Virus genome (UHGV): UHGV-2202118
Source of the DNA: a virus
Direction: 5' to 3' (one strand)
DNA length: 64,000 nt
Below, piece after piece: positions 51,354 through 51,486 of this stretch. The position numbers were made by a program, and so were the translations under genes. Each line of letters starts with the position of its first letter. Position 1 is the stretch's first letter. The notes under the pieces are model-generated. The model saw only the letters and a list, made by a program, of their open reading frames with translations. It did no database searches and had not been told where the DNA came from.

Positions 51354-51486
51354 ACCAGACCGTTGTTTATCATCTTAAGTGCTACCATTACACCAACTCG
51401 ACATCTGCCGAGTGAAGGAATCGAACCTTCGCCTTTTCTTTACCGGAGAAATAGATTGTTTAAGTTTTGCTGTAAACGGTCTTCTG
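51354..51486 (-). ncRNA. candidate tRNA-like (permuted) structured RNA, not a canonical tRNA
   Basis: Minus strand order: CAGAAGACCG, hairpin TTTCT-CCGGTAA-AGAAA, T-arm-like GAAGG-TTCGATT-CCTTC, closed hairpin ACTCGGC-AGAT-GTCGAGT, D-arm-like GTG-TAATGGTAG-CAC, CGGTCTGG; termini are complementary. Confidence 0.45.

Follow-up and report, generated by a model that had tools for sequence, protein, structure and literature searches.

A candidate tRNA-mimic Y RNA and its paralogs in the tRNA array of a Felix O1-like phage, downstream of a gene for a Ro60-fold protein

Y RNAs and Ro60 have been studied in depth in animals and some few bacteria, though to our knowledge no role has yet been established for the tRNA-like domain of the bacterial Y RNAs, and only a handful of cases have come from phages. 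Here we analyze a 64,000-nucleotide (nt) stretch of the virus genome UHGV-2202118 (the window), whose minus strand bears, within a tRNA array, a 138-nt element, E4, that carries the hallmarks of a tRNA in permuted order. We consider it probable that E4 is a noncoding RNA of the YrlA-type Y RNA class and that its closing module, common to three neighboring paralogs (E1 to E3), docks a Ro60-like protein encoded upstream on the same strand.

In YrlA, as described by Chen et al. (2014, PMC4201824), a closing stem is followed by an optional V hairpin, a T arm, a loop-closed acceptor ("AS") and a D arm, and the RNA is encoded near the Ro60 gene, on the same strand and with a smaller Y RNA. The YrlA of Mycobacterium smegmatis has an acceptor of 7 base pairs (bp), is cut by RNase P and is CCA tailed (PMC4201824). 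The Ro60 of Thermus phage phiLo binds the adjacently encoded Yrl1 and Yrl2 in vitro as well as the host PNPase, and its authors propose PNPase hijack as an antidefense strategy (PMC12135203). Finally, gp130 of the Felixounavirus Bas63 was reported to be structurally Ro60-like, to be encoded directly upstream of tRNAs and to counter the ppl defense system (PhageMaP preprint, PMC11482910); as regards Y RNA partners, its authors went no further than the speculation that some Bas63 "tRNAs" may be Y RNAs (PMC11482910).

Architecture of E4 and its conservation in Ounavirinae

E4 lies in a 428-nt gap between tRNA-Asp and tRNA-Lys, and its parts are as follows.

51352..51489, minus strand: E4, candidate YrlA-type tRNA-mimic Y-like RNA, 138 nt (sequence, minimum free energy [MFE] fold, 164.6 bits with covariance model R1, covariation)
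51486..51489, minus strand: outer helix P0, 5' strand TTAC, pairing with GTAA at 51355..51352
51475..51482, minus strand: helix P1, 5' strand AGACCGTT, pairing with AACGGTCT at 51364..51357
51467..51474, minus strand: conserved unpaired motif U-ACAGCAA, equal to UUACAGCAA when the last helix base is included; invariant among E4 copies
51435..51451, minus strand: small hairpin TTTCT-CCGGTAA-AGAAA, first read as an anticodon arm and better matched to the V arm of YrlA
51414..51430, minus strand: T-arm mimic GAAGG-TTCGATT-CCTTC, invariant in Ounavirinae
51396..51413, minus strand: acceptor-stem mimic ACTCGGC-AGAT-GTCGAGT, 7 bp including one G.U pair, closed by a tetraloop; shows compensatory changes
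51379..51393, minus strand: D-arm mimic GTGT-AATGGTA-GCAC, with GG in the loop and, ahead of it, TG at tRNA positions 8 and 9

The helices follow one another in the order closing stem, small hairpin, T arm, loop-closed acceptor, D arm and closing stem. The 5' strand of the element reads AGAAGACCGUUUACAGCAA, with an AGA loop ahead of the 5' strand of P1, opposite a single G on the 3' side. In tRNA numbering, GUCGAGU takes positions 1 to 7 and is followed by U8 and G9; the D arm GUGU/GCAC holds the loop AAUGGUA (A14, G18, G19, A21); the T arm GAAGG/CCUUC holds the loop UUCGAUU, at the positions of T54, pseudouridine 55, C56, R57 and A58; and ACUCGGC is the 3' acceptor strand, with the next A in the place of the discriminator. 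It is at the acceptor that the chain closes, and the gap through which the closing stem enters falls between position 26 and that of the anticodon stem.

A first-pass annotation made from the letters of the window alone had described the stretch 51354-51486 as a tRNA mimic with its ends in a separate stem, and the helix order, which is that of YrlA, together with the covariation bears this out. All the strings that it quoted occur on the minus strand at the place given: the termini CAGAAGACCG...CGGTCTGG, TTTCT-CCGGTAA-AGAAA, GAAGG-TTCGATT-CCTTC, ACTCGGC-AGAT-GTCGAGT and GTG(T)-(T)AATGGTA-(G)CAC. Some details had to be revised. The extent was rightly placed but fell 5 nt short (3 nt on the 5' side plus 2 nt on the 3' side), the TTAC/GTAA helix reaching 51489..51352; the D-arm-like hairpin has its GG loop, but the stem given as GTG/CAC is really the 4-bp GTGT/GCAC; and the "anticodon-arm-like" hairpin is present but is the least conserved part, its loop varying in sequence and numbering 6 or 7 nt, and has a better counterpart in the V arm of YrlA.

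Thermodynamic folding of 51354-51486 on the minus strand, one of the checks proposed by the annotation, returned all five helices in the unconstrained MFE structure, though at z = -1.46. The plus strand folds otherwise, and the G.U pairs of the acceptor and D stems exist on the minus strand only, becoming C.A mismatches on the plus strand. When the window was parsed strictly for a T arm, a closed acceptor with 6/7 pairs or more, two unspecified bases and a D arm with GG, E4 was the only match, with none on the plus strand. Neither ARAGORN nor the Rfam tRNA model (RF00005) at its gathering score called a tRNA or tmRNA on E4; the Rfam tRNA model gave a partial match of 22 bits (gathering score, 29) over the small hairpin and the T arm.

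The region around E4 is 95 to 100% identical to that of ∼250 Felix O1-like phage genomes (Ounavirinae: Felixounavirus), and 73 to 89% identical to those of Mooglevirus and Suspvirus, also Ounavirinae; E4 is kept in ∼250 phage records. Among the Ounavirinae copies, 94% of the alignment cells at paired positions are paired, compared with ∼45% in slid registers, and for P1 the figure reaches 99%. The T and D arms are invariant over the three genera, with variable flanks, while the acceptor changes in a compensatory manner between genera, from ACTCGGC/GTCGAGT to ACCCTTC/GAAGGGT or ACACG/CGTGT. Thus, the hairpins are conserved among homologs and the acceptor strands have kept their complementarity through double substitutions, which argues against a decayed tRNA pseudogene; none of the outcomes that the annotation had named as fatal to its reading on structural grounds (no stable fold of several helices, unconserved hairpins or decay) was observed. 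The least conserved of the internal hairpins is the small one, which is 84% paired and whose loops among relatives include CCGGTAA, CGGTAA (6 nt, in many Felix O1-type copies), CTGGTAA, CTATAAA, CTATGAA and AGGGTAT.

Some features of the public records concern the same segment. In several GenBank records tRNAscan-SE has placed a 129- to 131-nt "tRNA-Thr-GGT" here (MZ726792, L001 1600-1728; OQ174504, L002 701-831). The 129-nt call corresponds to window positions 51534..51406, and it takes an unrelated, poorly paired 5' strand and a long pseudo-intron and ignores the true 5' half of E4. In other records the region of E3 and E4 is covered by small "hypothetical protein" open reading frames (ORFs), such as the opposite-strand bas63_0137 and bas63_0138 of Bas63 (MZ501086, 82748-83022). 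The sequence GGCGAAG at 51427..51433, minus strand, fits the GNCGAAN0-1G motif; it sits where the variable region meets the T stem, is replaced by GGAGAAG in other copies of the Felix O1 type and is probably coincidental.

The closing module, the Ro60-like protein and their linkage across phages

Neither the paralogs of E4 that share its closing stem nor the nature of the gene upstream had been seen in the first pass. These features are the following.

52053..52130, minus strand: E1, between tRNA-Glu and tRNA-Met (R1, 39.4 bits)
51899..51964, minus strand: E2, between tRNA-Met and tRNA-Asn (R1, 42.1 bits)
51497..51575, minus strand: E3, same closing module with an A/U-rich apical hairpin and no tRNA-like domain (z = -2.5)
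51215..51348, minus strand: E5, possible fifth member, directly 3' of E4 (MFE, -47 kcal/mol; z = -5.7)
52462..53877, minus strand: gene for a Ro60-fold protein of 471 amino acids, the proposed RNA partner (DUF2828 and DUF7788, with a von Willebrand factor A [vWA] domain and a MIDAS [metal ion-dependent adhesion site] motif)

The closing module common to E1 to E4 consists of a 4-bp outer helix, an AGA/G asymmetric loop, an AGACCNN/NNGGUCU helix and then UUACAGCAA. The outer helices differ in sequence yet remain complementary (TGAC/GTCA, TTGC/GCAA, GAGC/GCTC and TTAC/GTAA), the inner pairs of the second helix covary (AA/UU, GU/AC), and the sequence on the 5' side is (U/A)U(A/U)CAGCAA in all four. 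The exact 9-mer CAGAAGACC has four minus-strand copies in the array, each followed by GGTCTGG, and one lone copy elsewhere in the window. Only E4 carries the tRNA-like insert; E1 to E3 have short A/U-rich hairpins instead. The four elements hold the same array positions in Felixounavirus, Mooglevirus and Suspvirus.

E5 is formed by a 19- to 23-bp closing stem around a multibranch structure that includes the hairpin AGAC-CUUAAGCAA-GUCU. Eight of its pairs show compensatory changes between genera, and in Mooglevirus and Suspvirus the hairpin is AAACC-CUUUAGCAA-GGUUU. This hairpin looks like a hairpin form of the UUACAGCAA module, so that E5 may be a fifth Y-like RNA, of presumed kinship to E1 to E4.

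From the end of the upstream ORF it is 166 nt to the first tRNA and 973 nt to E4. At E ≤ 0.01, Pfam assigns to its product DUF2828, DUF7788 and a weak vWA match (VWA_2), and its PHROG family is 850, "RNA-binding protein". Sequence searches of the PDB, by phmmer with the protein and by hmmsearch with a 40-sequence profile, found no Ro60, and the link to Ro60 was therefore drawn through structure prediction and Foldseek. An AlphaFold2 model built from 40 homologs (predicted local distance difference test, 87; predicted template modeling score, 0.87) shows, as is the hallmark of Ro60, a ring of HEAT repeats and, after it, a vWA domain with a MIDAS, whose residues D279, S281, S283, T349 and D381 are invariant in the 40 homologs. 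The top 12 Foldseek matches in the PDB are all Ro60/TROVE proteins, aligned over the full length (∼510 to 560 columns) with probability 1.0 and template modeling scores of 0.5 to 0.66 at 12 to 16% identity; they include Xenopus Ro, Deinococcus radiodurans Rsr and the Ro60 of Thermus phage phiLo (9KOP/9L5Y). The ortholog in Bas63 is gp130 (460/471 residues identical, with identical synteny), and the Bas63 genome carries E1 to E4, its E4 being identical to the copy in the window. Homologs were found by tblastn in at least 710 phage records, including mycobacteriophage genes labeled "Ro-like RNA binding protein", and the DUF2828 protein ranges from Felix O1- and KVP40-type phages to phages of Listeria, Staphylococcus and Mycobacterium.

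In a Listeria phage (L166 5200-6455), Cronobacter phage GAP32 (L170 1004-2269) and Sinorhizobium phage phiM19 (L169 1154-1717), the homologous gene lies near genes of the RNA repair type: an RtcB-like "tRNA splicing ligase", a directly upstream RNA ligase and an Appr-1-p processing (macro) enzyme. Such a ligase or RtcB beside the Ro60-like gene is reminiscent of the rsr-yrlBA-rtcBA operon of bacteria.

At its core the module is a 7-bp helix with UUACAGCAA after it, and this core adjoins Ro60-like homologs on the same strand in phages of enterobacteria, Yersinia, Aeromonas, Sinorhizobium, Mycobacterium, Listeria, Staphylococcus and Enterococcus. It stood beside the homolog in three of the first four distant loci (mycobacteriophage Snenia, Yersinia phage P778 and Aeromonas phage 4_4572), each time as a 7-bp helix with UU(A/U)CAGCAA immediately after it and the complement 50 to 130 nt downstream. 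P778 also has a tRNA array 3' of the gene, and its helix is GGACUGU/ACAGUCC, compared with AGACCGU/ACGGUCU here. Aeromonas phage 4_4572 has four tandem copies with four different helices, and Snenia has three modules followed by a terminator, with no adjacent tRNA; the middle one carries a T arm, an 8-bp closed acceptor and the D arm GCUC-AGUUGGUA-GAGC. Three modules lie just upstream of the homolog in the Listeria Pecentumvirus and three just downstream of it in the Staphylococcus Sextaecvirus, and the linkage was also found in Enterococcus phage EF1 and in phiM19.

The modules were counted in 75 diverse IMG/VR loci, each encoding a homolog 39 to 48% identical to the protein. There were 110 modules on the gene strand (in 57/75 loci), compared with 35 on the opposite strand and 17 ± 3 in shuffled sequences. 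With a relaxed motif, 102 of the 171 plus-strand modules were located within 1 kb of the gene, a zone that makes up 22% of the bases, and 56 of the 75 loci had at least one there. Among these near-gene modules the helix begins with AGG, AGA or UGG in 71/102, and a G follows the 3' strand in 81/102. As the scan itself selects for pairing, the support comes from the contrasts of strand, position and shuffles and not from pair counts. The 4-bp outer helix is not general in distant phages (19/95, compared with 31 ± 4 in permuted controls). Together, these data indicate that the Ro60-like family filed as DUF2828 travels with an RNA family of its own in phages whose hosts are Gram-negative, Gram-positive or actinobacterial.

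The core of E4 recurs in many of the distant modules of greater length: a T arm that abuts a hairpin-closed acceptor of 6 to 8 bp, two bases (usually UA) and a D arm. Over the distant loci, the strict parse gave 19 matches on the gene strand and 3 on the other, with ∼2 in shuffled sequences; a few weak matches were tRNA dimers. A covariance model, R1, was built from 14 Ounavirinae E4 copies only and run over 742 kb on both strands, its E values being rough because the calibration was shortened. R1 matched E4 itself over 51491..51350 and gave full-length matches in ∼20 unrelated viral contigs (E = 1e-12 to 1e-3), as well as in the P778 tRNA array (L009 6779-6885) and in Snenia (L008 4519-4658). 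All the matches in loci (52/52) fell on the strand of the Ro-like gene. In the 21 best matches, 94.7% of the cells were paired, compared with 57.6% in shuffled sequences and ∼40% in slid registers, and double changes were observed at 31 of the 33 pairs. By helix, family-wide pairing was 97.5% for P1 (8/8 pairs covarying), 97.9% for the T arm (4/5 covarying) and 98.4% for the D arm, whose stem is invariant in Ounavirinae; all 7 acceptor pairs covary. A MAFFT alignment of the distant tRNA-like modules (A4) had its 3' strands out of register, so it was dropped from the counts in favor of the search with the E4-built model. For its part, an IMG/VR scan with a 16-base pattern returned 73 loci, of which 41 were single, partner-less chance matches; complete elements occurred only in contigs of Ounavirinae size.

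The Rfam YrlA model (RF02553) matched several relatives of E4 over the full length of the model, with 28.7 to 39.2 bits (E ∼1e-7 to 1e-5; gathering score, 69), the alignment passing through the T/acceptor/D core and not through the 5' motif. At the loci that were run against Rfam 15, nothing but tRNAs reached the gathering score, the shared module included, and the subthreshold YrlA matches went to tRNA-like members only.

Thirteen of the distant cores are clean, with 7/7 acceptor pairs, and in 4 of these the loop that closes the acceptor begins with N-CCA, as in ACCCTTC-G-CCA-AACA-GAAGGGT; the cores in question are L004 1743-1798, L124 5563-5618, and L159 5843-5901 and 8527-8582. The AGAU loop of E4 has no CCA. 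Such a loop looks like an encoded discriminator plus CCA, which, by analogy with the M. smegmatis YrlA, suggests that these RNAs may be opened at the acceptor.

The remaining features of the region are those of the array itself.

49245..52296, minus strand: tRNA array of 15 tRNAs, with E1 to E5 in its spacers (ARAGORN; Rfam tRNA)
52323..52443, minus strand: a pair of sigma-70-like promoter matches, 3' of the Ro60-like gene and 5' of the first tRNA (consensus matches only)

The promoter matches likely mark the start of a tRNA/Y-RNA polycistron, to judge from their consensus sequences, and a terminator-like site lies 3' of the array. The best sigma-70-like match of the region is at 50956..50928, inside one of two further long minus-strand spacers (50696-50972, ∼275 nt; the other is 50380-50620, ∼240 nt). 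ARAGORN counts 15 tRNA genes and the Rfam model 13: tRNA-Tyr (51717-51804), labeled a pseudo-tRNA in some GenBank records, and a second tRNA-Met (51968-52044) are both called by ARAGORN but are missing from the Rfam matches at gathering score. An HNH endonuclease ORF of 150 amino acids is inserted within the array (49569-50021, minus strand), and related phages have HNH homing endonucleases elsewhere in it, as does mistaenkt between tRNA-Asn and tRNA-Asp.

Proposed role and rival explanations

As we picture it, E4 would be cotranscribed with the phage tRNAs, and the enzymes that process the tRNAs on either side, RNase P and those of 3' trimming, would set it free as well. The two ends of E4 would pair into a stem ending in the internal-loop motif UUACAGCAA, proposed here as the recognition element for the Ro60-like protein; this module, common to E1 to E3 and perhaps present in hairpin form in E5, would be the docking site for the Ro60-fold protein encoded 1 kb upstream on the same strand. 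The rest of E4 would form the top half and elbow of a tRNA, with the T arm stacked on the closed 7-bp acceptor and the GG of the D arm able to pair with the T loop, presenting a tRNA-shaped surface with no decoding anticodon. Because the M. smegmatis YrlA is cut by RNase P, a cleavage site of this type is predicted in the acceptor between 51403 and 51402. By analogy with the bacterial and Thermus phage Ro60-Y RNA systems, the RNA may tether or gate the Ro60-like ring and bring it to host enzymes that bind tRNA or degrade RNA (RNase P, modification enzymes, PNPase-type exonucleases); alternatively, it might act as a decoy for tRNA-directed host defenses. E1 to E3 are read as YrlB-type members of the same Y-like RNA family.

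Several observations weigh against the assignment of E4 to the Y RNA class and of its module to the Ro60-like protein. E1 to E4 are known here from their sequences, and a literature search for Felixounavirus expression data returned nothing relevant. The folding energy of E4 is unexceptional by the z score given above and was not used as evidence; the case therefore rests on the comparative data, and there the 21-member family alignment behind the pair counts was itself fitted to the R1 model. RF02553 gave no match to E4 or to the window, either at the gathering score or at E ≤ 10, and where YrlA has GNCGAAN0-1G the 5' strand of E4 has UUACAGCAA. Pfam TROVE did not match the protein at E ≤ 0.01, so that the fold alone ties it to Ro60. 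No clear module was found beside the homologs of Vibrio phage ValKK3, with one ambiguous candidate overlapping the gene start, or of GAP32, with none. Moreover, gp130 alone, from a plasmid or in T7, suffices against ppl (PMC11482910), and the RNAs are therefore not needed for the sole known phenotype of the protein.

This last point would also suit an explanation that dispenses with a dedicated protein partner, namely, that E1 to E4 are structured spacers that guide the maturation of tRNA precursors, as entry sites for RNases III, E or P or as folding insulators, with the Ro60-like neighbor being incidental. The elements do occupy the inter-tRNA spacers almost exactly, and the tRNA-like E4 could be a handle for RNase P or RNase Z. 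We regard this explanation as unlikely, in that the module stands beside the homolog with no adjacent tRNA in Snenia, the Staphylococcus Sextaecvirus and the Listeria phage, and that UUACAGCAA stays constant from phylum to phylum whereas the helix tolerates changes of sequence, as would suit a specific protein ligand. It is far less probable still that the inverted termini are a DNA-level element (a miniature mobile element, a recombination or homing-endonuclease site, or a cruciform) whose RNA structure is irrelevant. The termini are indeed repeated four times in the array, with HNH endonuclease genes in and near it, but the helix sequences covary instead of being conserved, the flanking 4-bp stretches are inverted complements and not direct target duplications, and in the window there is no copy outside the array except the lone 9-mer. 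A mobile DNA element was rejected on account of the strand-specific G.U pairs and the complete strand bias of the R1 matches.

Two readings take E4 for a tRNA gene, intact or decayed, and both are very improbable. A genuine circularly permuted gene, with a transcript circularized or ligated over the closing stem and then opened in the acceptor to give tRNA-Thr(GGU), would account for the 3' half (hairpin, variable region, T arm and 3' acceptor strand) lying ahead of the 5' half (5' acceptor strand and D arm), for GGT at the anticodon position and for the tRNA-Thr-GGT label in GenBank. However, that label derives from the call with the different, poorly paired 5' strand and the long pseudo-intron; in relatives, position 33 is C, T or G instead of U; the small hairpin is absent from the Rfam YrlA consensus and from many distant relatives; and the closing stem, which recurs in three paralogs devoid of tRNA parts, has its AGA/G loop between helices of 4 and 8 bp and is not a bulge-helix-bulge with two 3-nt bulges 4 bp apart. 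A decoding permuted tRNA was rejected for want of the latter and for its variable loop: judged from its sequence, E4 is not a decoding tRNA, because the "anticodon" loop varies in sequence and is 6 nt long in many Felix O1-type copies and 7 nt in others. As for a functionless pseudogene or a remnant of two adjacent tRNA genes, the first having left its T arm and the second its D arm, the T-to-D order can indeed be imitated by dimeric tRNAs, a caveat raised by Chen et al. (PMC4201824) and illustrated by the tRNA dimers among the weak strict-parse matches. Nevertheless, no helix-breaking indels were seen among close relatives, the two arms stay invariant over three genera while their flanks vary, ∼250 phage records keep the element, and the two "acceptor" strands are mutually complementary across genera and phyla through double substitutions; the dimer remnant was rejected for this complementarity and covariation.

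Going beyond the reading of E4 as a YrlA-type RNA, we put forward tentatively, and with more doubt than confidence, that E1 to E5 and the DUF2828 protein represent a widespread, unrecognized class of phage ribonucleoprotein, kin to Ro60/Y RNA by fold and architecture only. Its recognition code would be an (A/U)GR-helix followed by UUACAGCAA, and its tRNA-shaped member would be cut by RNase P at the acceptor and end in CCA, as a two-piece mimic on a Ro-like ring, serving as a decoy or sensor against tRNA-targeting defenses or as a recruiter of exoribonucleases. If this is true, the class belongs to the antidefense and tRNA maintenance toolkit of phages. In any case, the speculation on the Bas63 "tRNAs" now has concrete candidates, with coordinates, a predicted structure and a candidate protein-binding motif, in a genetically tractable system (Felix O1 and Bas63 on Escherichia coli or Salmonella) whose protein already has an antidefense phenotype, and a recurrent misannotation, the bogus 129-nt "tRNA-Thr-GGT" and the small hypothetical ORFs over these RNAs, is corrected.

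Comparison with known systems

Permuted arrangements of tRNA parts occur in the circularly permuted tRNA genes of the red alga Cyanidioschyzon merolae and in two-piece (permuted) tmRNA. E4 resembles these in its layout, with the 5' tRNA half encoded downstream of the 3' half, and in the short linker by which the primary transcript connects the acceptor strands. In contrast, it has no conserved anticodon loop, bulge-helix-bulge junction or tag reading frame, and its closing stem is a conserved module common to paralogs that are not tRNA-like.

In the literature searched, the papers on YrlA, phiLo and PhageMaP and a passing line on TROVE proteins whose partners in jumbo phages are tRNA-like contain no description of E1 to E5 or of the UUACAGCAA module, although the supplementary phage list of Chen et al. 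may include some mycobacteriophage members. With phiLo, the present locus shares a phage Ro60-fold protein with RNAs of the stem-internal-loop-stem type encoded next to it; the phiLo Yrls, however, were chosen by their CGAA motif, no tRNA-like domain was reported for them, the identity of the proteins is ∼15%, and the binding of E1 to E4 is here proposed by analogy. Compared with what was suggested for Bas63 gp130, the RNA candidates are unannotated spacers and not annotated tRNAs, and they lie partly under the opposite-strand bas63_0137 and bas63_0138.

The closest likeness is to YrlA. As in that RNA, the effector domain of E4 is enclosed by a stem of its paired ends, in which an internal loop lies near the 5' strand; T arm, AS hairpin and D arm follow in the same order, with an optional V hairpin; and the acceptor has 7 bp, as in M. 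smegmatis. E4 is also located within ∼4 kb of a Ro60-type gene on the same strand, the partner being a Ro60-fold homolog and not a Pfam TROVE protein, and smaller Y RNAs without a tRNA domain are found alongside, YrlB in the one case and E1 to E3 in the other, E3 lacking the tRNA-like domain just as YrlB does. The differences concern the partner, which is DUF2828/DUF7788 here and TROVE there, and the number and placement of the RNAs, with four or five copies interleaved in a tRNA array compared with one or two next to rsr. Because it has no 5' GNCGAA, scores below the Rfam threshold, goes with another Pfam family and is one of several copies among tRNAs, E4 is not a member of RF02553 as defined; it is most likely a variant of the Y RNA kind.

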